A stretch of 64,000 bases of DNA from a virus, in IMG/VR virus record IMGVR_UViG_3300042197_003333, positions 1-64,000 of that record; one strand, 5' to 3'. A model generated the notes under the pieces. The model was given only the letters and a program-made list of their open reading frames with translations, ran no database searches and was not told the origin of the DNA. Position numbers and translations under genes: made by a program. This document shows, piece by piece, positions 21,183 to 64,000 of this stretch. Each line of letters begins with the position of its first letter. The stretch's first letter is position 1.

Positions 21183-21269
21183 TGTATTTATATTTGTAGT
21201 TATATATAAATATCAAAAAAACAAAAAAATCCCTCAACGGAGGGATTTTTTTATAAGATAAATAGTATA

Positions 21270-43320: not shown

Positions 43321-44376
43321 ATGTCATTATATAAGGCTTTAATTGATTTTAGAGACAACGAAAATAACCCATTTTGGGTAGAAAGGGCTGACGATGATAA
43401 TATTGTTAGTGTAAAAACTGTAGTCAAAACAAATAGAGGTAAATCTTTAGTTGCATTAAAATTTGACTTGGAAAGTTTTTCAGAACTTTTTTTACCTGAA
43501 AATGAAGAGAATAACAATAAATTTTTAATATCAGTTTCTTTTGGAAGAGGGTATTATGGTGATTCTGTTTTTGTAGATACAGGTTATTTTGGTGAAGAAG
43601 AAATGAAAGAAGGTTATATCTTCAGACATTTTTCAGATGAAAGTTTAAAAAAGTTAAATGAAATTTTAATTATGGCAAGACCTGATTTGGCAAATAAAGG
43701 AAGTGAGGTTTATGATGAAGTCGGACCTTGGTTGTTAAGTAATTTTAGTAGACAGGCTTTAGAAATATGCTCTACATATTCATATGAATATGATGAATGT
43801 CTTGTTGCAGGTGTAAAAGACTATGTTATAGGTAAACTATGTAAACGTTTATCGGAATTTATGATGATTGAAAGTAAATGCGGTAGTTTATATTATACAA
43901 CAGTAAACAACCTTCTAAAATTATGGGATAAATCAGAATTAAATAAAGATGCAACAATGACTGAAGTATTAAAGAAACTTATATTGGATTCAAATTTGGA
44001 ACTAGATGAAGATTTATATGATGATTATTACGCATATTGGGATAATGATAATTTTGACCAACCTAGCTTTAATAGAACAGTAGATAGAGAACTAGATAAA
44101 ATAGAAGAAATAATAACCGACCAATTAGAAACAGGTGAATTTGCAGAAAATAAAAAAATGTATGATTTTATTATATCAAAAAAATTACAATTTGATAGTT
44201 GGAATAGTTTCCCAAAAGAAAAAACTTTTGGAGAAAAAAATAAAATGAAGTTTAGATTAGAAAAAGTTGAGGATGGTAAAGTTCATATTATTACTAATTT
44301 CCCCACAGGTACCAGAGGAGCGTATCTTGATTTAGAACAATTTAAAAATTTTTTATATCAACCTGAATTATTTTAA
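43321..44376 (+). CDS. Hypothetical protein
   Basis: 351-aa ORF, TATTTAT upstream. Confidence 0.75.
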   Translation: MSLYKALIDFRDNENNPFWVERADDDNIVSVKTVVKTNRGKSLVALKFDLESFSELFLPENEENNNKFLISVSFGRGYYGDSVFVDTGYFGEEEMKEGYIFRHFSDESLKKLNEILIMARPDLANKGSEVYDEVGPWLLSNFSRQALEICSTYSYEYDECLVAGVKDYVIGKLCKRLSEFMMIESKCGSLYYTTVNNLLKLWDKSELNKDATMTEVLKKLILDSNLELDEDLYDDYYAYWDNDNFDQPSFNRTVDRELDKIEEIITDQLETGEFAENKKMYDFIISKKLQFDSWNSFPKEKTFGEKNKMKFRLEKVEDGKVHIITNFPTGTRGAYLDLEQFKNFLYQPELF

Positions 44377-44412
44377 AAAAGTTTTGTATATTTGCCCATA
44401 ACTTTTAAACAA

Positions 44413-45225
44413 ATGAATAATTTAGATTTTTTCAAAACATTACTTTCAGTTCCTACGAAAACATATCAGGAAGATAAAATGATTGATTTTTTGGTTTCAT
44501 ATTTTGAATCAAAAAATTATGAGTTCTTTGTTGATGAACTTGGAAGTATATATGTTACAAAAGGAGTTGTAAAACCTGGTGAATACTTCCCCTGTGTTGT
44601 CGCTCACACCGATACGGTACATAAACTTGACACAATTAATGTGATGGAAGAAACTCTTCCTAATTCAAAAGGTGAAGACTCACTATGTCTTAAAGCTTAT
44701 AATGATTTTAATGAGCCAACGGGAATTGGTGGGGACGACAAATGTGGAATATTCGCTTGTCTTGAGCTTCTTGAAAAATTTGATGTTATAAAAGCGGCGT
44801 TTTTTGTTTCAGAAGAAGTCGGTTGTATTGGGTCAAATAATTCTGATGATAGATTTTTTGATAATGTTGGTTATGTTATTGAATTTGATGCTCCTGGCGA
44901 TTATTGGGTGACTGAATATTGTTTTGGAGTTAAACTTTATGACAGGGAGTCAGAGTTTTTCAAAATTTCAAATAACATTCTTTCTGAAAATTTGTTGTCA
45001 AAACCATCTTATGGTGTTCACCCTTATACTGATGTATATGCGCTGAAAAAGAAATATAATTTTGCTTGTATTAACTTTTCAATTGGGTACCATAACTATC
45101 ATACCAAAAATGAGTATATCTGCATTGAAGAGGTTGAAGCGGGAATTAAAGCGGGTGGTGAGTTAATTAAATCTTTGGGTAATGTTAAACACTTTTTTGA
45201 CCACCCATCAAAAGTTAATCTATAA
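44413..45225 (+). CDS. M20/M28-family zinc peptidase
   Basis: VAHTDTVH, GGDDKCG, SEEVG, EFDAPG, YHNYHT. Confidence 0.85.
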   Translation: MNNLDFFKTLLSVPTKTYQEDKMIDFLVSYFESKNYEFFVDELGSIYVTKGVVKPGEYFPCVVAHTDTVHKLDTINVMEETLPNSKGEDSLCLKAYNDFNEPTGIGGDDKCGIFACLELLEKFDVIKAAFFVSEEVGCIGSNNSDDRFFDNVGYVIEFDAPGDYWVTEYCFGVKLYDRESEFFKISNNILSENLLSKPSYGVHPYTDVYALKKKYNFACINFSIGYHNYHTKNEYICIEEVEAGIKAGGELIKSLGNVKHFFDHPSKVNL

Positions 45226-45236
45226 AAAAAGGGGGA

Positions 45237-46490
45237 TTATTCCCCCTTTGTTTTTCTTGCCCTTTTTGTCTTCTTATATTCCGAGTAAAGCACTTTTTCA
45301 TCTTCAATTCTCATAACGTAAAGTGTTTCTTCTTTAAGATTTTTTCTTAAAACTTCGTCGGAAATAAAATCTTCAATCTTTTCTTGAATTGCCCGTTTAA
45401 GCGGTCTTGCTCCATATACCTCATCAAACCCAACTTTTGAAATAAAGTCAATAACTGATTCATCAAAAGTAATATTAAGTTTCAACCCCTCAAGTCTTGA
45501 CTGCAATTTGTTAATTTCAACTTTAACAATCTTTTTAACATCTTCATCGTTTAATGTATTAAAAACAATTACCTCATCAATACGATTTATAAATTCGGGG
45601 GCAAAATGATTTTTTAATTCTTTATTCAACATTTGTTTTTTAACCTCTTGGTCAGCATATACGTTGTTTGTTTTGGAAAATCCAATCCCCGCTCCAAAAT
45701 CTTGCATTTTTTTGACCCCAATATTTGATGTCATAATGATAAGACAATTTTTAAAGTTAATTTTTCTTCCAAAACTATCTGTCATATAACCTTCATCCAA
45801 AAGTTGGAGGAGTGATGAAAAAATATCACGATGAGCCTTTTCAACTTCATCAAAAAGAACAACCGAATATGGTTTTGTCTTAACCTGTTCTGTTAATTGA
45901 CCCCCTTCTTCATATCCAACATAACCTGGAGGTGAACCAATCAATCTTGAAACCGAGTGTTTTTCTTGAAATTCACTCATATCAACCCTAATTAAATTTT
46001 CTTCACTTCCAAATATCTGTTTTGCCAATTCTTTCGCTAAAAGAGTATTGTGAGATAAAATACCATTAGTATAATATCTTCTATTAGAACCTTCTTTTAA
46101 TTCTAAATCAAACATAACTTCTTCGTACCCTAAATTAGTTATTGATACAACTTCACATTCTTCTAATTTATCATCACCAAATACACATATTTTATCACCA
46201 ACATTTAAATTCTTCACAAAAACTTCTTCCATATTGTCAATATAAAAAACAATATGATTATCGGCGCATTTGAGTTCTTTACCATCAGATAATTTAAGGT
46301 GATAAACCTCATAAGGTATTGTTTCATGTAATGCCTCAATATCAACAAAACCGGTGTCGGTTAATATTTCATAATCTGATATTTTAGTTGTTTTAGTAAA
46401 TTTTTTTAATGAATCTAATTCGTGTTTATCAAATAAAAAAACATTATCTAATTTCTCAATTCGTTTTTGTATTTCTTCAATTCCATTCAT
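45237..46490 (-). CDS. clpC: ClpC fragment 3: IntC-2 (148 aa, 46490..46047) plus C-terminal NBD2 extein
   Basis: CADNH (block B), MFDLEL..YTNGILSHN/T; then LIRVDMSEF, RLIGSPPGYVGYEEGG, VLFDEVEKAH, GIGF loop, GARPLKR. Confidence 0.9.
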   Translation of the reverse strand: MNGIEEIQKRIEKLDNVFLFDKHELDSLKKFTKTTKISDYEILTDTGFVDIEALHETIPYEVYHLKLSDGKELKCADNHIVFYIDNMEEVFVKNLNVGDKICVFGDDKLEECEVVSITNLGYEEVMFDLELKEGSNRRYYTNGILSHNTLLAKELAKQIFGSEENLIRVDMSEFQEKHSVSRLIGSPPGYVGYEEGGQLTEQVKTKPYSVVLFDEVEKAHRDIFSSLLQLLDEGYMTDSFGRKINFKNCLIIMTSNIGVKKMQDFGAGIGFSKTNNVYADQEVKKQMLNKELKNHFAPEFINRIDEVIVFNTLNDEDVKKIVKVEINKLQSRLEGLKLNITFDESVIDFISKVGFDEVYGARPLKRAIQEKIEDFISDEVLRKNLKEETLYVMRIEDEKVLYSEYKKTKRARKTKGE

Positions 46491-46491
46491 A

Positions 46492-47712
46492 TCATTTGTT
46501 TTTTAAAAATTTTATACATTTATTTATTATCTCTTGCTTATTCCCCCACCTATATTCAGAGTCCCATATTACTAAAACTTCAAAACCACAATTTTTGGCC
46601 ATGCATAATTTTAATTTATCCTTATCCCAAATTTCTTGTGCAGTTATGTTTTGTTTAAATGGATTTGGGTAATCTGTTGATTTATATTTTGTTGGGTTTG
46701 CGTGAAATGAATCTCCATGAAACTCAATTATTTTTTTATTAATAGTGTCAGTAAAATCGTATAACCAAACTCCGCCATTTTCTTTTTCTAACTTGAATTC
46801 TTTATTATGTGTTGCAAAATAAATTTTATCTTTATCAACAATATCATATTTTTCTAAAAGTTTATAAAATAAATCTTGTGAAATTTTAGAAAACCCAATA
46901 ACCATACTACCATTTTTTATCAAAGAATTTAACCATTTATCCTGTCTTTCATTAAATCTTTTTTTACCTTGTTCTTCACCATATTTTTTTATACATTTTT
47001 CTAATGAAAAAGTTGATTGGTGTTTAGATACTTTTTCTTTTGCTTCTTCTTCAGATAATCCAGTTTTTGTCCAATATTTAATATTAGAAGGTATTAATCT
47101 TTTTTGGAAATCTACTTGTTTAGCCGATTTTTTTTGATTTTTAGAAATAATTTTTTTAGCCTCAAGTTCTGTTTTACCTTTATTAATCCAAAATTCAACT
47201 TTTGAAGGAGTTAAACAAATTTTATTTATTTCTTCTTCAGTATATCCTTTTTCTATTAGCATTTTTTTAGATTTACCATGATGAGTTTTAACACATTTAG
47301 AAGATTTTTGCTGTTGTTTTGAAATTTCTTTAGTCGCTAATTCTTTTGGGTAACCTTTATTTATCCAATACTCTTCACATAAACGATTTCTTTTTTTAAT
47401 TTCATAATTTCTGTTTTCTAATTCTTTTAAAGCTTCTTTTTCATCCCAACCACGCTCAATAAAATATTCTATTTTGCCCCATTTTTTAGTTTTAAAGCTA
47501 TAATTTTTTACCAACCACCCTCTCATTAATGAATATGAAATAGTACCATCTTGTTCTTCTAATTTATTCATCAAAGATTGCATTTCTTTTTTTATTTTTT
47601 CATTATTGTAACGTATGTTCTTATCTAATTTTAAAACATAATTTTTAAATGTTTCTAAATCTGGAAAAATTTCGTTTATTTCTTTAGTTCCTTTGTTTGT
47701 TTTTATTTTCAT
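46492..47712 (-). CDS. Free-standing Vsr-like PD-(D/E)XK homing endonuclease splitting intein 2
   Basis: Repeats (Y/F)WxxKGxxExEAxxxIS; C-terminal YDF..IIEFHGDSFHANP..GFEVLVIWDSE. Confidence 0.75.
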   Translation of the reverse strand: MKIKTNKGTKEINEIFPDLETFKNYVLKLDKNIRYNNEKIKKEMQSLMNKLEEQDGTISYSLMRGWLVKNYSFKTKKWGKIEYFIERGWDEKEALKELENRNYEIKKRNRLCEEYWINKGYPKELATKEISKQQQKSSKCVKTHHGKSKKMLIEKGYTEEEINKICLTPSKVEFWINKGKTELEAKKIISKNQKKSAKQVDFQKRLIPSNIKYWTKTGLSEEEAKEKVSKHQSTFSLEKCIKKYGEEQGKKRFNERQDKWLNSLIKNGSMVIGFSKISQDLFYKLLEKYDIVDKDKIYFATHNKEFKLEKENGGVWLYDFTDTINKKIIEFHGDSFHANPTKYKSTDYPNPFKQNITAQEIWDKDKLKLCMAKNCGFEVLVIWDSEYRWGNKQEIINKCIKFLKNK

Positions 47713-47758
47713 AATATCTATTTTATAATAAATATCGTAAAGTTTAAAAAAGTTAGGA

Positions 47759-49270
47759 CTAATTGGTGTCGGTAATGATATTTTTTATTTTTATTGTCTT
47801 TATTTCACCAGTAAACTTGTTTCTAACTATAATTTCAGTATCTTCACAAACACATTTTCCAACACCTGTTGAACCCAAAAATATGAATGAACCAATTGGT
47901 TTATTTGGGTCTTTAATACCCAACCTATTTCTTCTTATTGATTTTGATATTGTTGTGATTGCTTCAATTTGGCCTATAACTGATTTTGACAAATTATCTT
48001 CCATATTTATCAAATTTTCTGTATCATCAACTGATAATTTGGTAACTGGAATTTTTGTCATTATTGAAACAACATCATAAACAAGTTCAATTGAAATGTC
48101 TCTTCTTTTTGTTAATAAATCTTGTTCAAATTTGGTTCTTTCAGCATCTAATTGACTCAAAATCTTTTTTTCCCTGTCTCTTAATTGTGCTGCCATTTCA
48201 TAATTTTGCCTTTTGACAACAAGTAATTTTTCTTCCCTAATTTTTTGTGATTCTTTCTTTAATTCCTCAATAATTTCGGGATTTTTAACATCAACTTGAG
48301 CTCTTGCTCCAACTTCGTCCAAAATATCAAAAGCCTTATCAGGAAATTCTCTATCTGTTATATATCTGTCGGCCAAATCAACACATGCGTTTAAAATTTC
48401 ATCTGTAAAATTAACCTTGTGATGAATTTCGTATTTTTCTTTCAAATTTTGAAGAATTTGAAGAGTTTCTTCTTTTGTTGATGGTGAAACAATTACTTTT
48501 TGGAACCTCCTGTCAAGAGCCCCGTCTTTTTCAATATTTTTCTTAAATTCATCAAGTGTTGTTGCTCCAATGCACTGAATTTCACCTCTTGATAATGCGG
48601 GTTTTAGAATATTTGATGCGTCAAGTGAACCAGATGCGTTTCCAGCCCCAACAAGGGTATGAATTTCGTCAATAAAAAGAACTACATTTGGATTTACCGT
48701 AATTTCGTCAATTATAACCTTTAATCTTTCTTCAAATTGACCCCTATATTTTGTTCCCGCAACAATTGAATTTAAATCAAGTGATAAAATTCTTTTGTCA
48801 ACCAAATTTCTTGGGCAATCTCCTTGAAATATTTTCATTGCAAGACCCTCAACTATCGCCGTCTTTCCGCAATTATGGGAAACAACTCCATTTGATATAT
48901 ATTTTCTTTCATCGTCTAAAACTTCTAAATCATAGGTATTATTAATTCCTATTTCAGTATATTCTATAACATCAACCAATTCATTATTTTCAGTCCAAAC
49001 AAATTCACCTTCTGTAATGTTACCTAAACTTAACCAACAAGAATTATTTTCAAAAACAACATTTGGATTTAAAGAATTTTTAGAAACTTCAACCAAATGT
49101 TCGTCAGAACCTGATAATTCTAAACCATTTGATAGTTTAATTCTAATACAATTTTTATTGTTTTTTTTGTATAAATTACCAATTAATTTATATCCTGATG
49201 GTGTTTTAATTTTGTAAGTCCCACCTTTTTTTTCAACAAGGTCAAAAAAATCTTCTATTTTTATTTTCAT
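47759..49270 (-). CDS. clpC: ClpC fragment 2: IntC-1 (133 aa) plus middle extein (339 aa) plus IntN-2 (31 aa, 47854..47762)
   Basis: TYDLEV..ISNGVVSHN/CGKTAIVEGLA; AGTKYRGQFEER; LFIDEIH; UVR-like middle domain; FLGSTGVGK/CVCEDTEI. Confidence 0.9.
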   Translation of the reverse strand: MKIKIEDFFDLVEKKGGTYKIKTPSGYKLIGNLYKKNNKNCIRIKLSNGLELSGSDEHLVEVSKNSLNPNVVFENNSCWLSLGNITEGEFVWTENNELVDVIEYTEIGINNTYDLEVLDDERKYISNGVVSHNCGKTAIVEGLAMKIFQGDCPRNLVDKRILSLDLNSIVAGTKYRGQFEERLKVIIDEITVNPNVVLFIDEIHTLVGAGNASGSLDASNILKPALSRGEIQCIGATTLDEFKKNIEKDGALDRRFQKVIVSPSTKEETLQILQNLKEKYEIHHKVNFTDEILNACVDLADRYITDREFPDKAFDILDEVGARAQVDVKNPEIIEELKKESQKIREEKLLVVKRQNYEMAAQLRDREKKILSQLDAERTKFEQDLLTKRRDISIELVYDVVSIMTKIPVTKLSVDDTENLINMEDNLSKSVIGQIEAITTISKSIRRNRLGIKDPNKPIGSFIFLGSTGVGKCVCEDTEIIVRNKFTGEIKTIKIKNIITDTN

Positions 49271-50439
49271 AATACATTTAATATTTTATCATATAGTTTA
49301 GTAAAATCTGTCTCATAAATCAATTTAATTTTGTTTTCATTACAAAATAAAATTTTTTTATTCATTTTATCGTAATATTTAGATTGTTTTTCGTCTAATT
49401 TGTTAAAATTTTTTCCGTCTAAAATACCAAAATATTCAATATACACATCGTAATCAGGTAGATAAAAATCACATTTAAAATGCGAATTCGGGTACCCAAT
49501 CTCATATGAATAATTAATTTTTTTAAATTCAAATAAAAGACAAAGTTTATATTCTTTAACGCTTTTAAATCTAATCCCATTATGATATACAGGGGTACCA
49601 TATAAGCCACACTTTAACTCATAAGGAAATGATGAAAAAAAAGTTTTTTTAATTGTGTCTTTATTAGTATTGTACCTATTTGAAATGATTGAGCTATTAA
49701 TGTAAGGGATAATATCTGAAATAGTTTTAACGTCTATTTTTGTTAAAACACACAAAACAAATTTTGAAATAGAATCACAATCAATACATTCTGTTATAAT
49801 TTTTTTTGTACTATCTAAAAAAGATGTTCTTACTATTAAATCTTTTATTGGTACTTTATCAAAAGAATATGAGTTCTTTTTTTTATTAATTTCATTAATT
49901 TTATTATTTGTGTGAAGACTATTAATCCATTTTTTTTGTCTTTTTTGGAAAATTTCAACTCCTTCCTCTTCACCATATTTTTGAATACAAATTTTTTTGC
50001 TAAAAGTTTTTTGACTTTCAGAAATTAAATTTTTTGCCTCTTCAGAACTAAATCCTTTTTTTACCCAATATTCAATTCTTTTAGGGGATTTGTCATAAAA
50101 TTTTTCAGGATTTATTTTCTTTTTGTCTGAAAGAATTTTAGAATTTTTTTTCTGTTGCTCACTAATAAATTGAGTTATTTCTGATTTTTCCCATCCCATC
50201 ATAAATAAAAAGTCTTCATTATATACACTTTCAGGGTAATTAACTATTTGTCTATACCACTTCTTAATTTCCTTAAAATTAATTTGAGTCGTATTTTTAA
50301 TTTGATTATTAACTTTATCAATACAAGAGTCGGGTATTTTTTTAAAGAACTTAAAAAAATTATTATTTAAAATAAAATTTTCTAAATCAATATGATTTGA
50401 TATAGTTAATAATTTTTTTCTTTTAAAGAAAACATTCAT
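49267..50439 (-). CDS. Free-standing PD-(D/E)XK homing endonuclease splitting intein 1
   Basis: YWVKKGFSSEEAKNLISESQ, CIQKYGEEEG shared with 46492..47712; FKSVKE..KCDFYLPDYDVYIEYFG. Confidence 0.75.
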   Translation of the reverse strand: MNVFFKRKKLLTISNHIDLENFILNNNFFKFFKKIPDSCIDKVNNQIKNTTQINFKEIKKWYRQIVNYPESVYNEDFLFMMGWEKSEITQFISEQQKKNSKILSDKKKINPEKFYDKSPKRIEYWVKKGFSSEEAKNLISESQKTFSKKICIQKYGEEEGVEIFQKRQKKWINSLHTNNKINEINKKKNSYSFDKVPIKDLIVRTSFLDSTKKIITECIDCDSISKFVLCVLTKIDVKTISDIIPYINSSIISNRYNTNKDTIKKTFFSSFPYELKCGLYGTPVYHNGIRFKSVKEYKLCLLFEFKKINYSYEIGYPNSHFKCDFYLPDYDVYIEYFGILDGKNFNKLDEKQSKYYDKMNKKILFCNENKIKLIYETDFTKLYDKILNVL

Positions 50440-50478
50440 AGTTAATCAGGTTAAAGTAATTACCTTTACCTATAAATA

Positions 50479-50772
50479 TCAGATAGTTTCAATATTATGG
50501 GTATTTACAACTGAAATTTTTTCAACTTCAATAATAGTGTCCCCAAGTACGCAACCCGGCTCACCAATAATAATTGGGTTATTTTTTTTCCTTCTTGATA
50601 AAATTTGAGCGATTCTCAAAATTTCTTGTTCTCGTCCAACAACTGGGTCAAGTTTTCCTTCTTCTGCCAATTTAATTAAGTCCCTTGAAAAATTATCAAG
50701 TACAGGGGTTTGACCTTCTTGTGTTCTTTGGTTTCCACCACCTTTTTTTCCTTCGTCTGGAGTTTCTGTCAT
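50479..50772 (-). CDS. clpC: ClpC fragment 1: N-extein (73 aa) plus IntN-1 (24 aa, 50553..50482)
   Basis: [47 protein letters not shown]. Confidence 0.9.
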
Positions 50773-50864
50773 AAAAATCGTTTTTAAAAATCTAAATGAT
50801 TTTTCAAATTAATTCAATAGATTATTAAAGTTGACATTTTTTATTTGTTCAATATAATTTGGTT

Positions 50865-51107
50865 ATGGCGATTACAAACGAAAAAATATCAGGAACAAAA
50901 ATTATCAATAAAGTTGAATCAAGCAATTTGGTTGAAACTGAGTATGATACTACAACAAAAAAATTAATTGTTGAATTTAAAAATGGGGTAAAATATGAAT
51001 ATGAAGACGTTCCCCATCAATTATATACAAGTTTCCGTTCATCTGAATCACAAGGTAAATTTTTTGTTTCTGAAATATCAAAAAAATTCAAATACAAAAA
51101 GTTATAA
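50865..51107 (+). CDS. KTSC-domain protein
   Basis: VESSNL..YD..LIVEFKNG..YEYEDVP..SESQGKFF. Confidence 0.85.
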   Translation: MAITNEKISGTKIINKVESSNLVETEYDTTTKKLIVEFKNGVKYEYEDVPHQLYTSFRSSESQGKFFVSEISKKFKYKKL

Positions 51108-51128
51108 TTTGTTAGATATTTATAACTT

Positions 51129-51848
51129 GTGAAGAACGATGAAATAATTAAAAGTTTTGTAACAAGAGATGAATTAAACCCAAAAGTTTGGGAAAATGAG
51201 GATACGCTCAATAAAGAAGTTAGGGAAAAACTTCTGTCTACCGCAAGTGAATTTATTGATTTTATAGGTGTTCCAATTTTAATTAGTGATATTATTTTTA
51301 CAGGGTCATTGGCTAATTATAATTGGTCAAAATACTCGGACATTGACTTACATATAGTTGCTGACTTTAATCAATTTGATGATACTGTACTTCCCTTATA
51401 TGAAGAACTTTTTAAAGTTAAAAAAACTTTATTCAATACCGACCACAACATTAAAATATTTGGATATGAGGTTGAACTTTACATTCAAGATTTACATGCC
51501 GCCCATTTTAGTAGCGGAGTGTATTCTGTATTAAATGATGAATGGAACAACAAACCAAAAAAAGAAAAAGTTGAAGTTGATAAAAATCTTATCAAACAAA
51601 AATCTAATCAGTGGATGGAAATTATTGACACTGCGCTTGAAGCAGCATCAGATGTAACGGCTGACGATGCTAAAGATATTATTAAAAAATGTAGAGAAAA
51701 ACTTAAAAAATATAGAACTTGCGGACTTGAAAAAGAAGGTGAGTATTCAGATGAAAATTTGGTTTTTAAAGTTTTAAGAAGAAATGGTTATATTGAAAAA
51801 CTTGTAAATTTTGAAAATAAAGTTGTAGATAAAGAATTATCTATATAA
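51129..51848 (+). CDS. Pol-beta-superfamily nucleotidyltransferase
   Basis: IFTGSLANYNWSKYSDIDLHIV (GS..DxD). Confidence 0.75.
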   Translation: MKNDEIIKSFVTRDELNPKVWENEDTLNKEVREKLLSTASEFIDFIGVPILISDIIFTGSLANYNWSKYSDIDLHIVADFNQFDDTVLPLYEELFKVKKTLFNTDHNIKIFGYEVELYIQDLHAAHFSSGVYSVLNDEWNNKPKKEKVEVDKNLIKQKSNQWMEIIDTALEAASDVTADDAKDIIKKCREKLKKYRTCGLEKEGEYSDENLVFKVLRRNGYIEKLVNFENKVVDKELSI

Positions 51849-51909
51849 GTTTTTTGCCGTAAATAGAAAAAACGTAATAATTAATATATTTATTGTAAAA
51901 AACTGCGCT

Positions 51910-52095
51910 ATGGCAATATTATCGTCGGGAACTTATACTTATAAAATAATAAATTTTACAGGTGCCACTAATTGTGAGGCATGTACATCAACATTGCAAC
52001 CACATCCGATTTATAGTAGTATAACAAATTCAGCTGATACAGTTGTTCAGTTGAATGCCGTAACAATCGGTGGTTTTAATGGATTAAACAATTAA
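51910..52095 (+). CDS. Small hypothetical protein
   Basis: 61-aa ORF after TATTTAT. Confidence 0.6.
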   Translation: MAILSSGTYTYKIINFTGATNCEACTSTLQPHPIYSSITNSADTVVQLNAVTIGGFNGLNN

Positions 52096-57780: not shown

Positions 57781-60700
57781 TTGGACATTGGGGTTGGTTT
57801 TATTGAAACTCCTCCCCCAACCCCATCAATTACACCGACTAACACCCCGACAATATCATTAACACCATCAAACACCCCTACTCCGTCAATTACGCCATCA
57901 AATACTCCTACCCCATCAATTACGCCTACAAACACTCCAACTAATAGCGTTACGCCAACTAATACTCCAACAAATACACAGACCCCAACTAATACTAAAA
58001 CACCAACACAAACAAGAACTCAAACACCAACAAATACACAGACCCCAACTAATACTAAAACACCAACACAAACAAGAACTCAAACACCAACAAATACACA
58101 GACCCCATCAATTACGCCGACTAGTACTAAAACACCAACACCTACAAAGACCCAAACACCCACTAATACCGTAACTCCTTCGGAAACACCGACCAATACT
58201 CCAACAAGGACATTAACAAAAACTCCAACACAGACCCCGTCAATTACCCCAACTAATACTCAAACTCCAACAAATACTAAAACTCCAACTCCAACAAGAA
58301 CTGAAACTCCGACTAATACCCCAACAAACACACAAACTCCAACAAATACTAAAACTCCAACGAATACTAAAACTCCAACCCCGACAAATACAACCACGCC
58401 ATCAGAAACTCCAACTAACACTCCAACAAGAACATCCACAAAAACACCAACGCAGACTCCATCAATTACACCAACAAATACAACAACACCATCAGAAACT
58501 CCAACTAATACTCCAACAAGAACATCCACAAAAACCCCAACCCCTACTTCAACTATAACTCCAACAAATACTAAAACTCCAACGAATACTAAAACTCCAA
58601 CACAAACAAATACAAACACCCCATCAGAAACCCCAACCAATACCCCAACAAGAACATTAACAAAAACTCCAACAAATACCCCAACACAATCACCGCAATT
58701 TTCTCAATCACCGACTCAAACTCCAACAAAAACTCCAACTAATACTGCCACAAATACCCCGACTAGTACCGTTACTCCAAGTAACACCACCACAAATACC
58801 CCAACTAATACTGCAACAAAAACCCCTACCACAACATCAACTCCTGCGGCTAGTGCTTCACCAACTTCAACTCAAACTCCAACAAATACCCCAACATCGT
58901 CTGTAACTCCAACAAATACAAAAACTCCTACTAATACACAAACTCCTACTAACACACAAACTCCAACTAGAACTTCAACTCCTACTAATACACAAACTCC
59001 TACTCAAACATCTACTAATACTCAAACTCCTACTAATACACAAACTCCAACTAAAACTTCAACTCCAAGTCCAACTCAACCATCGTGTTTTTGTTATCAA
59101 TTCCAAATTACTACTAATGGTACAACTGTTCAATCAACAAATTGTAATGGTAATATAACTCGGAGCGCATATTCAATTGGTTATTACTCAATTTGTTCTA
59201 GAGTTACACCGACATTTATTGGTGGTTCGTATTCAAATTTAATTCAAGCTGCAAGTTGTTTAAATGGAGGTGACGCCGCTTGTATCGCAGTGAGCCAATC
59301 ACCGACTCCGACTCCGACAATTACCCCAACTAAAACACTTACCCCTACTCAAACTCCTACTAATACTCAAACTCCTACTAACACAATTACCCCTACCAAC
59401 ACCCAAACTCCAACAAATACTCAAACACCTACTAATACTCAAACTCCAACTCCTACTTCAACTCCTTTGGCAAGTCCTTCCCCAACCTCAACAGTTACTC
59501 CAACTAATAGTGTTACCCCAACTAATACTCCAACTAATACTCAAACTCCAACACCAAGTATTACACCGACTAATACTCAAACTCCAACTAATACTCAAAC
59601 CTCAACAAACACACCAACTAATACTGTAACACCAACAAACACGCCTACTAATACTCAAACCCCAACAAATACACAAACCCCAACAATTACGCCGACTAAT
59701 ACTATAACTCCAAGTATTACTCCTACTAATACTCAAACCCCAACAATTACACCAACAGTAAGTCCAAGTAGTCCAGTCTTATTAGAATTTTTAAGTTTTC
59801 CGGCGTCAAGTGGGATTTCATTTTCATTTGGTAACTCAACACAGGTCAGACAAACAACTGTTGAACTAACAGACACTAATTCTGCCAGTACTATTTATAA
59901 TTTTAATAATACAGGCGATACGACATTTGTGTCGTTAGGTAGTTCGGTGGCTAATTTTACCTATACACCCACTACCTCAAATGGAGAGCTATTACTCTTT
60001 AAAAATCCTGTAGGATTTATACATTCTTTTAAAACAAGTAGTGTTAGTACGTCTTTATTTATACAAGGTTTTTCGGCTATAACAAAAAATCAAAATTACG
60101 CACTTAAACAGAGTTATTTTGGAAAAACCCTTCTTACTATAAGTGGCTTCTCAGGCTCATTAAATTTACTTGATTATAATGGTTTTGAAGGCGCAAGGCT
60201 TTACATTTTTAATTATATTGCAACAGGAACAAATGCAAGTAATGCTGAATTATTAGATAATTCTTGGTTACCCAAAAATTATACGGCAAGTACTACCGCT
60301 CAACAATTTTATTTTAACGTTAGCGCGACTACAAGAGCCAGTGTAAATTTTAATTTGACTGGAATGACAAATTTATCGTATCTAGTAAATGACGATGTTA
60401 ACCACGAAATAAATGGGGTAACTTCAATAACATTGGCGTTACCTCAAAATTTTGGTAGAACTACTACTTTTGGCCCGGTAAGTGCTGTTGACCCTGCAGC
60501 TGGAATTTTTATACGAACAACTAGTTCTAGTCCTAACCCTTTAACCGCCGTCACAATAACAAACGGGCCGTCAGTTGTGTCCAATTTTAGTAAATTTCAA
60601 TTAAGACTTATACCTAGTTTGGTTTCTCTAACAACAAGTTACCAAAGAAATTTGGCAATATATTCTTTGGAAAGAATGTCATCTTTAACTGCAGTAACCG

Positions 60701-61761
60701 ACGATTTTAGTGTATATACTGGTTTAACTTATTTTAACATTACTACTTGTCCTAATTTAAGTAATTTCACTGCGAATACTTTATCTGGATTATCTAATTT
60801 TCAACACTATTTGTTAAACGATTGTAAACAATTTAATTGGCCTATACTTCCCACTTTTAATCAAAACCCTTACAAATTACAATTAACAAATTGTCTTCTT
60901 ACTTCACCTCCCCCATCATCGCCATTTTATTTTAAAACAAATCTTAAAGACATATATTTAGGAAATTTTGTTAGTACAAGCACAAATGAAATTGCTATAC
61001 ATTCAAATAAAAATGTAATTAATTTATGGGATTATAATCTTACGAGTTTGACAGGTTTGACTACGTTTAGTCTAAATCATTGTGAATTGACAGGAATTAC
61101 AAATTCAAATATATTCCCGACACAAGTTAAGACCATTAATTTTATATCTAATCGTTTAAGTGGTTTATCTTTTTCACATTTTAGTTCGGTAACTGGATTC
61201 TCAATGAATATTTCAAATGGTAGTAGTGCAAATGATAGGAACACCATTTCAGCGTTCACTGATTGTAATTCTGCGTCGGGACTAACAGCATTAACTTATA
61301 CTAATGGTACTTTCCAACCAACTGGAGGATTTCAGCCATTTTTTCCTACGGGATTAACTTCATTAAATATTAGTAGTAGAGTAAATGGTAGAAATGCTAC
61401 TCCATATGTAAATATTGTATTTTCATCAAACACTGTATATTCAGGATTTAATAACTCTTTAAAAACTTTAAATATCAGTAATTTTTCTTTATCTGCCGCT
61501 AGTATGAATTACATAATTTGTTGGCTCGCAACGGCTCAAACGTATAGCACATCAGTTACTGGAGGCACATTAAATGGGGGTAATGAATTTATATCATCAA
61601 CTACTAATCCTACTGGTAACGCCAAAATAGACACAACTTCAGGTGGATTAAATGGAATTGTCTGTAGAGATATTTTAACAGGTACTGTAGGTAATACAAT
61701 AACAGTTAACACTATTCCTTACCCAGGTAAAGGTTGGACTGTAACAGGTACTTTTGCTTAA
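57781..61761 (+). CDS. Large Thr/Pro-repeat (mucin-like) protein with Cys-rich insert and C-terminal LRR-like region
   Basis: About 660 aa of TPTNT/TQTPT repeats, then LxxLxL/IxxN-type repeats; an in-frame ATG at 57670 is separated from it by a single TGA. Confidence 0.8.
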
Positions 61762-61820: not shown

Positions 61821-64000
61821 ATGATGGAAAATAATAAAATGACAGTATGGCAAAGATTGTCCCAAGCTTTTGGTCCAAATTCATTGCTCGGACAAGATTA
61901 TCCAACATACAAATACGATAAAAAAGAACTTTTAAGGACAACATCCAAAAAAGAATATGACCTTGAAAAACTTCAAGCTCAACAAAATTACTATCTTGCA
62001 AACCAATGGTCAAAGATTGAACACAATCTTTATACCCAAGCAGTGTATTACGAACCAACAAGATTATCATCTTTTTATGACCTAGAAAGTATGGAGTTTA
62101 CTCCAGAAATATCTGCAGCTTTAGATATTTACGCCGAAGAATCAACGACAGTAAACGAAGATGGTTATATGCTTCAAATTTATTCTGAATCAAAAAGAAT
62201 AAAATCAATTTTGGCTGACTTATTTAACAACGCTCTTGATATTAACACAAACCTTCCGATGTGGACAAGAAACACATGCAAGTATGGTGATAATTTCGTT
62301 TATTTAAAACTTGACCCCGAAAAAGGTATAGTTGGATGTATGCAACTTCCAATTATTGAAATTGAAAGATTGGAAGCGGGAATGGGAGGAAAATCTGCCG
62401 ACCCTGAAACAAACCCAACAAAAAAACATACAAGATTTAAATGGAAACAAAAGGACTTGGAGTTCAATACTTGGGAAGTTGCTCACTTTAGATTACTTGG
62501 TGATGATAGGAGACTACCGTATGGAACTTGCCTAAAATTTGATACTAAAATTGATACTGAATATGGAGTTAAAGAAATTAAAGATATTGTAAAAGGGGAT
62601 AAAGTTTATTCATTTGATTTAAATTCAGAAGAAAAAGTATTGTCTGATGTTTTAGATACTGTAAATTCAGGAGTTAAAATTTGTTACCAAATACATACTA
62701 AACATAATTTTATTGAAGCTTCAGAAGAACACAAAATATTAATTTTTGATGGAAATAAATTTACATATAAAAATACATTAGAATTAAATATTGGTGATTT
62801 ATTAGTTATTGACAATTCAAAAAATAAAACTAAAAAAACTTTGATTAATAAAACACAACCTGAAGATAATAAAAACGGATGGTTTAATAGTGTTGATTTA
62901 ATACCTGAATATATAAATGAAGAATTTGCTAGATTTTTTGGATTTATGTTAGGTGATGGCTGGATTAGTAATAATGGTGTTTATTTTGCATTATCTGAAT
63001 ATGATGATTTAAATGATTTTTATATTGGGATATTAAACAAATATTCCAAAAATCCAGTAAAAATTATTGAGGTTGATGGCAAAGAAACACAATGCATGGT
63101 GTGGTCAAAGTGTTTAAAGACAATTTTAGAAAGAATGGGTTTTAATGGTAAGGCCTCAACTAAAAGATTACCTAGTTGGATATACAGCTCGGATGTAGAA
63201 ATACAAAAGGCTCTTTTAGAGGGACTAATAGACTCAGACGGATGGATAACACAAGATAAATGGTCAACACATCTTAATATTGAATTATGTAATGAAAATT
63301 TAGTAAAAGACGTTAAAACTTTATGCCAAAAGATTGGATATAAATCAGGTTCAATTAGAAAAAGAGAACCAAGAAAAAATGTGGTAATTGAAGGTAGAAA
63401 AATTAAATCGGTAAAACCAAGTTATTCTTTGACTTTTTATGATACCTTATTAACTCAAACGAAAAAATATGACAACCAATTTAGAAAAAATGAAAATTAC
63501 ATTTTAGAACCAATTACAAAAATTATTGACATTGGAGAACATGAAACTTTTGATATATACGTTGAAAATCAAAATCATAATTTTTACGCTAATGGAGTCG
63601 TTGTACATAATTCAATGTTAGAAAAAGCTCGTCGTATTTGGAAACAATTATTATTATCCGAAGACGCAATGTTAATTTATAGAACATCAAGAGCTCCTGA
63701 AAGAAGAGTATTTAAAGTATTTGTTGGAAATATGGATGACGCAGATGTTGAACCTTATATCCAAAGATTTGCAAATAAATTTAAACGAGACCAAGTTGTT
63801 GACTCTAAATCAGGAAATGTTGATATGAGGTTTAATCAAATGGCGGTTGACCAAGATTATTTTGTTCCCGTTAGAGACCCAGCTCAAGCTTCCCCAATTG
63901 AAACATTAGCAGGTGCCACAAACCTATCGGAAATCGCGGATATTGAATATATTCAAAAGAAATTGCTCACCGCAATTCGTGTTCCAAAAGCGTTTTTAGG
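61821..64000 (+). CDS. Portal protein (T4 gp20-like), intein-containing, truncated by window end
   Basis: Manual translation: PEISAALDIYAEE, CKYGDNF, LPYGT/intein/SMLEKARRIWKQL..EDAMLIYRTSRAPERRVF..QDYFVP. Confidence 0.9.
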   Translation, partial: MMENNKMTVWQRLSQAFGPNSLLGQDYPTYKYDKKELLRTTSKKEYDLEKLQAQQNYYLANQWSKIEHNLYTQAVYYEPTRLSSFYDLESMEFTPEISAALDIYAEESTTVNEDGYMLQIYSESKRIKSILADLFNNALDINTNLPMWTRNTCKYGDNFVYLKLDPEKGIVGCMQLPIIEIERLEAGMGGKSADPETNPTKKHTRFKWKQKDLEFNTWEVAHFRLLGDDRRLPYGTCLKFDTKIDTEYGVKEIKDIVKGDKVYSFDLNSEEKVLSDVLDTVNSGVKICYQIHTKHNFIEASEEHKILIFDGNKFTYKNTLELNIGDLLVIDNSKNKTKKTLINKTQPEDNKNGWFNSVDLIPEYINEEFARFFGFMLGDGWISNNGVYFALSEYDDLNDFYIGILNKYSKNPVKIIEVDGKETQCMVWSKCLKTILERMGFNGKASTKRLPSWIYSSDVEIQKALLEGLIDSDGWITQDKWSTHLNIELCNENLVKDVKTLCQKIGYKSGSIRKREPRKNVVIEGRKIKSVKPSYSLTFYDTLLTQTKKYDNQFRKNENYILEPITKIIDIGEHETFDIYVENQNHNFYANGVVVHNSMLEKARRIWKQLLLSEDAMLIYRTSRAPERRVFKVFVGNMDDADVEPYIQRFANKFKRDQVVDSKSGNVDMRFNQMAVDQDYFVPVRDPAQASPIETLAGATNLSEIADIEYIQKKLLTAIRVPKAFL
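62529..63611 (+). mobile_element. Contiguous intein (361 aa) with LAGLIDADG endonuclease in the portal
   Basis: CLKFDTKI start; IEASEEH; FFGFMLGDG and LLEGLIDSDG; TFDIYV..FYANGVVVHN/S. Confidence 0.92.

Follow-up and report, generated by a model that had tools for sequence, protein, structure and literature searches.

In the genome of an uncultured large phage, a ClpC-type ATPase is encoded in three separate pieces that are most likely joined after translation by two split inteins, a reading to which we give a probability of roughly 0.88. The locus occupies positions 45237 to 50772 of the window, i.e., of the first 64 kb (64,000 nucleotides) of the 80,245-bp virus record IMGVR_UViG_3300042197_003333 in IMG/VR, which is a metagenomic fragment with about 29% G+C and an estimated completeness of about 27%. 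It consists of five consecutive open reading frames (ORFs) on the minus strand: frag1, HE1, frag2, HE2, and frag3. The three fragments carry the ATPase, and HE1 and HE2 are free-standing genes resembling homing endonucleases (HE). Each fragment combines a part of the ATPase, the extein (E1, E2, or E3), with one or two pieces of intein, either a short N-terminal one (IntN) or a long C-terminal one (IntC). When the ORFs were re-read, the coordinates and lengths given for the three fragments in an earlier note on this DNA all held. The same is true of its statement that removing the intein parts restores both Walker A loops and leaves a 681-aa ClpC-type ATPase, the junctions being GEPG/CGKT and GVGK/TLLA. 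The features of the locus are the following.

50479-50772, minus strand: frag1, 97 aa, made of 73 aa of extein and 24 aa of IntN1
50554..50772, minus strand: E1, 73 aa, the N-terminal portion of the ClpC-type ATPase through GEPG of the D1 Walker A motif (phrog_4871 positions 163-224)
50482..50553, minus strand: IntN1, 24 aa, Cys first, block A only; stop codon at 50479-50481
50431..50480, minus strand: spacer before HE1, 39 nt, with a hairpin covering the HE1 start codon; carries GATATTTAT
49267..50439, minus strand: HE1, 390 aa, free-standing and homing-endonuclease-like, with helical N-terminal repeats and a predicted C-terminal Vsr-like nuclease domain
47759-49270, minus strand: frag2, 503 aa, made of 133 aa of IntC1, 339 aa of extein, and 31 aa of IntN2
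48872..49270, minus strand: IntC1, 133 aa, with block B His, block F Asp, and terminal His-Asn
47855..48871, minus strand: E2, 339 aa, from CGKT of the D1 Walker A motif through the remaining D1, the AAA lid, and a UVR-like linker to GVGK of the D2 Walker A motif
47762..47854, minus strand: IntN2, 31 aa, Cys first, block A only; stop codon at 47759-47761
47700..47750, minus strand: spacer before HE2, 46 nt, with a hairpin adjacent to the start codon of HE2; carries GATATTTAT
46492..47712, minus strand: HE2, 406 aa, free-standing and homing-endonuclease-like, with helical repeats and a predicted C-terminal Vsr-like nuclease domain
45237-46490, minus strand: frag3, 417 aa, made of 148 aa of IntC2 and 269 aa of extein
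46047..46490, minus strand: IntC2, 148 aa, with block B His, block F Asp, and terminal His-Asn
45237..46046, minus strand: E3, 269 aa and stop codon, from Thr of the D2 Walker A motif through the remaining D2 and the D2-small domain
45228..45249, bidirectional: hairpin resembling a terminator that closes the five-ORF block, with 5 GC pairs in its 9-bp stem and runs of T on either strand

One ClpC-type gene in three colinear pieces

The earlier note took the three ORFs for fragments of a single ClpC-type gene, and both profile coverage and uninterrupted alleles bear this out. Indeed, on the phage Clp profile phrog_4871, frag1, frag2, and frag3 cover positions 163-224, 224-510, and 510-753, respectively, with neither gap nor overlap, and frag2 and frag3 meet at position 501 of the ClpA model TIGR02639. 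Pfam searches matched E2 to PF00004 (AAA), PF17871 (AAA_lid_9), and, weakly, PF02151 (UVR motif) and E3 to PF07724 (AAA_2; 4e-58) and PF10431 (ClpB_D2-small; 7e-23). The product has the two AAA+ modules that place a protein in class I of the Hsp100/ClpC-ClpA family, D1 with AAA_lid_9 and D2 of the AAA_2 type with D2-small. No Pfam match to the Clp_N repeat domain was found in the product, of which E1 contributes just 73 aa from phrog_4871 position 163 onward; the uninterrupted relatives begin at the same point. Additionally, E3 harbors a Gly-Ile-Gly-Phe stretch, which presumably resembles the ClpP-docking loop known from ClpA, ClpX, and ClpC. No ClpP was found in the 80-kb record, a result that is uninformative at about 27% completeness.

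Scanning viral contigs with frag2 gave 32 loci, and E1, E2, and E3 were exactly contiguous in one ORF in every one of them (32/32). Because of this, the three-piece pattern cannot be attributed to chance. The closest uninterrupted allele, L004, is 95.9% identical to E1, 95.3% to E2, and 92.9% to E3. Its flanks are colinear with the window, which differs from it by two clean insertions, one of 1682 nt at site 1 (48872-50553) and one of 1808 nt at site 2 (46047-47854). A megablast search of the region against deposited phages gave no match. The residue following the site 1 junction (+1) is usually Val (GxPG-V-GKT). The Cys found there in the window (GEPG-CGKT) is already present in the close intein-free alleles L004-L012 and L016, and more distant intein-free alleles carry Ser, Ile, or Val. 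The Cys+1 of intein-free relatives may be either the footprint of past intein residence or a pre-adaptation.

Two inteins split near their N terminus

Each break had been described as an in-frame intein divided near its N terminus into a short IntN and a long IntC. This is in good agreement with the sequence signatures, with a contiguous allele of intein 2, and with its match to the Cat intein. The residues of a class 1 intein can be read directly from the ORFs, i.e., Cys1, a His-Asn pair at the end, and, in the +1 position, Cys at site 1 and Thr at site 2, and these, together with the block B His and the block F Asp, are conserved across the alleles of relatives. IntC2 matched PF14890 with 41 bits (cut-off, 35.8), and IntC1 matched TIGR01443 (intein_Cterm) with 22.2 bits (cut-off, 15.6). 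The split falls between blocks A and B in both inteins, leaving 24 and 31 aa in the two IntN pieces and 133 and 148 aa, with blocks B, F, and G, in the two IntC pieces. For intein 2, the split point was mapped on L044, in which this intein is one open, contiguous 173-aa mini-intein between GVGK and T; IntN2 and IntC2 of the window align with it end to end. The best PDB sequence matches of this contiguous intein were Cat, the consensus intein of the atypically split type (6dsl_B, E 3e-5), gp41-1, and VidaL. The pairwise alignment of intein 1 with intein 2 is unreliable over the N-terminal 40 residues, and we do not claim an exact map position for the intein 1 split.

Both short pieces are also conserved. 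IntN1, including its tail, was found in three lineages (L059, L060, and L037), and IntN2 is kept at 31 aa in L038, L039, L046, and L057 as well as in 15 clusters of middle fragments. The nearest relatives of IntC2 in deposited phage genomes are inteins of the terminase large subunit (TerL; 36-45% identity, 296 records), and those of IntC1 are TerL and UvsX/RecA inteins (25-30% identity). The hosts of all these relatives are P-loop ATPases. We considered the two inteins as alleles of the TerL inteins and rejected this, since their host is a ClpC-type ATPase; they are relatives, not alleles.

We then modeled the IntN1-IntC1 complex, which scored 0.84, a mark that is attained by 58 of 80 solved complexes and by 2 of 110 mismatched pairs; the best of 3 controls scored 0.14. 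Residues 71-97 of frag1 were placed against IntC1, with at least 80% of the contacts shared between runs and a partner pLDDT (predicted local distance difference test) of at least 63. The model supports binding of IntN1 to IntC1, although the pair is like split-intein complexes already solved and the pass may reflect this likeness or memory of them.

Binding by itself would also be expected if the intein halves were docking domains only and held the three pieces together without forming a peptide bond. The split NrdA of phage Aeh1 reportedly assembles through interaction domains in a comparable manner. Split-intein halves do bind tightly, and the complex model supports docking, the chemistry being outside its reach. 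However, an unspliced intein of 157-179 residues would then sit in each Walker A loop, and docking alone would not need the conserved Cys1, block B His, block F Asp, His-Asn, and +1 nucleophile. We thus regard non-covalent assembly as very improbable.

According to the trans-splicing model that we favor, the gene for a ClpC-type two-ring AAA+ unfoldase would have been invaded twice by mobile cassettes, one per Walker A loop. Each cassette would be an intein whose coding sequence is broken just past block A by the free-standing gene of a Vsr-like homing endonuclease. The five ORFs probably form one transcription unit ending at the terminator at 45228-45249. A terminator scan found no convincing terminator-like site between the ORFs within the block. 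The IntC-bearing ORFs are apparently translationally coupled to the endonuclease ORFs, as the frag2 ATG overlaps the HE1 stop codon (ATGA) and the frag3 ATG lies 1 nt past the HE2 stop codon. After translation, IntN1 would pair with IntC1 and IntN2 with IntC2, and two class 1 trans-splicing reactions (Cys1/Cys+1 and Cys1/Thr+1) would produce the 681-aa protein with both P-loops restored. The endonucleases would only spread the cassettes into empty alleles during co-infection.

The middle piece, with its IntC-extein-IntN geometry, places a particular demand on the two inteins, since any cross-reaction would cyclize the E2 piece or misjoin the pieces. The two IntC sequences are 29% identical, which is consistent with orthogonality. 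Going one step further, the inteins could be a naturally co-evolved and mutually orthogonal short-IntN pair, and the phage might, beyond tolerating selfish DNA, use both reactions as a post-translational gate on unfoldase activity, given that both P-loops depend on splicing. We put this forward as a speculation that is rather unlikely to be correct.

Putative nuclease genes, allelic states, and selection

Over a stretch of helical repeats of about 106 aa, HE1 and HE2 are 41% identical, and neither was given a family name by Pfam, NCBIfam, or the other sequence libraries searched. HE1 has 1726 representative homologues, and its AlphaFold2 (AF2) model reached a pLDDT of 89.6. Residues 283-390 of this model superimposed on I-Bth0305I (3r3p; Z 8.2, root mean square deviation [rmsd] 3.7, 88 residues aligned) and on Vsr (1cw0; Z 7.8, rmsd 4.5, 106 residues aligned). 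HE2 matches phrog_22677, and more than 10 loci have a homologue of it in the corresponding position. In a Foldseek search, I-Bth0305I (probability 1.00, TMt 0.67) and Vsr (probability 0.98) came first among its compact matches. When the HE2 profile was compared to PDB sequences, the lone match was rejected as a spurious repeat match, and the nuclease fold is predicted from structure models. The nuclease alignments contain invariant Asp, Glu, and His columns. On these grounds, HE1 and HE2 are putative Vsr-like homing endonucleases.

The hairpin in the HE1 spacer has a predicted energy of -11.7 kcal/mol (z -2.06), and z values were -2.68 for the HE2 spacer, -4.97 for the homologous spacer of L039, and just -0.73 for that of L054. 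The 9-mer GATATTTAT carried by both spacers occurs 8 times in the window (positions 21206, 25378, 28053, 35808, 40548, 47728, 50472, and 51115), compared to 2.5 expected copies, a number reached in none of 100 shuffles. Two copies lie just upstream of HE1 and HE2, and one lies just upstream of an ORF at 51129. Possibly, the 9-mer serves as a promoter or leader element of the phage.

Scans of viral contigs with the IntC pieces led to 25 further loci, which together present the gene in the following states.

Site 2 split, full HE2: L038-L040, L043, L046-L050, L054, L057
Site 2 split, nuclease-domain remnant only: L051-L053, L058
Site 2 split, nuclease gene absent: L036
Site 2 with a contiguous intein: L044
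Site 1 split, nuclease gene absent: L059, L060
Same state as the window at both sites: L037
IntC2-type intein at D1 GK/T: alone in L056, together with one at D2 in L042 and L055

In L051 (7661-7990), and likewise in L052, L053, and L058, the HE2 homologue is cut to a nuclease domain of about 110 aa and the helical repeats are gone, which looks like a degenerating or minimal endonuclease state within a split intein. The D1 GK/T site lies three residues downstream of site 1 of the window (L042, 4230-4870 and 5879-8435; L055, 6379-8354 and 9363-11778; L056, 4466-6511). The two IntC pieces that share one gene are 67% identical in L042 and 54% identical in L055, and these related inteins sharpen the question of cross-reactivity. 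Overall, the alleles provide a clean natural record of the intein and homing endonuclease life cycle for three P-loop sites within a single gene, with empty, contiguous, split with nuclease, split with truncated nuclease, and split without nuclease states all represented.

The arrangement is not rare in nature. The protein collection contains 969 clusters with a match to IntC2 and 135 with a match to IntC1. Among the 120 IntC1 proteins listed, 101 have the order IntC1-E2-E3, and 15 are middle pieces of 499-505 aa with the order IntC1-E2-IntN2, as in the window. Six proteins of 660-673 aa from other metagenomes (P0024, P0038, P0057, P0059, P0103, and P0107) carry an unannotated domain of about 250 aa fused in frame N-terminally to IntC2 and D2. 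A Pfam search names nothing for this domain, which might represent a further inserted gene that has become fused to the C-intein ORF.

The cassettes are also mobile. IntC2 of the window is 91% identical to that of L036 with a synonymous divergence (dS) of 0.39, compared to 1.5-1.8 for the flanking exteins, and the nucleotide identity between the two rises toward the junctions. We placed E2 in a quick maximum-likelihood tree of 117 rows with SH-aLRT support, in which the doubly fractured state requires 14 changes for 15 rows and is no more clustered than shuffled labels. Each doubly fractured row adjoins singly fractured alleles. This scattering indicates that the site 2 cassette has often been gained or lost.

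To assess whether the pieces are maintained, we compared nonsynonymous and synonymous substitution rates (dN/dS). Relative to L004, dN/dS of the exteins was 0.054 overall (E1, 0.043; E2, 0.048; E3, 0.061) at a dS of 0.68, a comparison that includes the time preceding the insertions and in this respect weighs against the trans-splicing model. Several other observations count against it as well. In the block B Thr-x-x-His motif, intein 1 has Ser and intein 2 has Ala instead of the Thr, with the His kept in both. IntC1 stays below the Pfam intein cut-off (PF14890, 15.7 versus 35.8 bits), and intein 1 was not encountered in a contiguous form. Finally, the nuclease fold matches have modest scores (Foldseek E 0.1-0.5; Z about 8), and pLDDT is just 65.6 for the HE2 model. 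Between the window and L037, which are both doubly fractured, dN/dS of the exteins was about 0.17-0.22. Ratios were 0.10-0.12 for IntC2, 0.23-0.27 for IntC1, 0.08-0.18 for IntN2, 0.04 for IntN1 (0.036 versus L059), and 0.18-0.21 for HE2. These ratios show purifying selection on the exteins, on the two inteins, and on HE2.

These values bear directly on the possibility that the nuclease gene insertions simply inactivated clpC and that the fragments are decaying remnants which are never joined. Both P-loops are indeed broken by stop codons, and an intact gene suffices for most relatives. Nevertheless, a dead gene would be difficult to reconcile with a dN/dS of about 0.05 in all three exteins, with the apparent purifying selection on the inteins and HE2, and with a ratio that is still about 0.2 between the fractured alleles of the window and L037. 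Furthermore, the splicing residues are all intact, and the 503-aa middle piece is retained in 15 diverged clusters. A dead gene is thus most unlikely. Least probable of all is that the interruptions are removed from the RNA as group I or group II introns bearing nuclease ORFs, or that the stops arose through faulty assembly. Homing endonuclease genes of phages do often reside in group I introns. However, an Rfam search of 44000-52000 returned no intron family at E ≤ 1, in-frame intein halves flank the nuclease ORFs, the intein of L044 has to be excised from the protein although no nuclease gene is present there, and the same stop codons are seen again in independent contigs and 15 protein clusters.

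Elsewhere in the window, a peptidase-like gene (44392-45225, plus strand; phrog_4191, E 2e-35) is convergent with the clpC block and has the bidirectional terminator at 45228-45249 in common with it. A portal protein gene (phrog_213; 61821-63998, plus strand, continuing past the window end) contains a third intein, which is contiguous and of full length, with two LAGLIDADG-type motifs, and lies between YGT and SMLEK (PF14890, 41.6 bits). A 1326-aa ORF at 57781-61761 (plus strand) consists of Thr-Pro-rich short repeats over nearly all of its first 700 or so residues and coincides with the strongest GC-skew excursion of the window (-0.63 at 58001-60000).

Comparison with known systems

According to the earlier note, a chaperone assembled from three polypeptides is rarely or never described. 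This appears to stand for the host protein and for the three-piece form, but not for the mechanism, which follows a published layout. Our literature search, with many subscription papers outside its reach, returned no intein host of the ClpC/ClpB type, no natural three-piece gene with two split inteins, and nothing relevant on split inteins of jumbo phages. The mechanism appears to combine the known fractured-gene layout with an atypical split of the TerL type, and the host protein and the double, three-piece form appear to be new and unpublished. If so, fractured genes extend past enzymes of DNA metabolism to an ATPase of protein quality control. The gene would also be a natural example requiring two trans-splicing events, in which the geometry of the middle fragment demands inteins without cross-reaction.

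In fractured genes of environmental phages as described by Dassa et al. in 2009 (PMC2677866), a split intein interrupts the host gene, and a free-standing gene for an endonuclease lies between the two intein halves. The untranslated spacers ahead of the nuclease ORF are 27-51 nt long and contain a hairpin, half of the fractured genes involve a Vsr-like nuclease family, and alleles that have lost the nuclease exist. The clpC locus shares the single strand, the colinear ORFs that rejoin seamlessly in silico, and the in-frame IntN and IntC, as well as spacers within this range (39 and 46 nt), hairpins, putative Vsr-like nucleases, and nuclease-less alleles. However, the eight host types of that study are enzymes of DNA synthesis, repair, and packaging with one fracture per gene, an N-proximal split was seen just once, in a terminase, and Clp is mentioned 0 times. 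Here, two fractures lead to three polypeptides, both splits are N-proximal, and the host is a Clp protein.

Regarding the inteins themselves, the closest type is that of GOS-TerL, AceL-TerL, Cat (6DSL), and VidaL (6VGV), which likewise have a short IntN with block A only and a long IntC with blocks B, F, and G. Known inteins with the TerL-type split have an IntN of 15-31 aa, and PolB16 OarG is another case (PMC10189870). The inteins described here differ in their host, ClpC, in their sites, D1 G/C and D2 K/T, in the presence of two of them in one gene, and in an additional helical stretch, about 35 residues long, with which IntC2 begins. Among cultured phages, the best relative of IntC1 (28% identity) belongs to Aeromonas phage PX29, whose gp17A/gp17B (GU396103) is similarly a split P-loop ATPase gene annotated as two ORFs, one with the N-intein piece and one with an endonuclease and the C-intein piece. 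Unlike the clpC locus, PX29 has a single fracture, which lies in a terminase gene, and its nuclease is of the GIY-YIG type and forms one fused ORF with the C-intein. The best structural match to the predicted catalytic domains of HE1 and HE2, I-Bth0305I (PDB 3R3P), is a Vsr-like enzyme of a phage recA group I intron. It differs in being encoded in an intron, whereas HE1 and HE2 are encoded inside an intein, and sequence identity to it is 14-22%.

Finally, tandem trans-splicing has been engineered, with two orthogonal split inteins joining three segments (PMC12707363, PMC11168065). The many diverged natural split inteins with a short IntN found here could be of use in peptide-based and three-segment protein ligation. 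In the engineered designs, the middle segment carries an IntC at its N terminus and an IntN at its C terminus, as in frag2. In contrast to them, the clpC arrangement is natural, tied to homing endonuclease genes, and recurrent in metagenomes.

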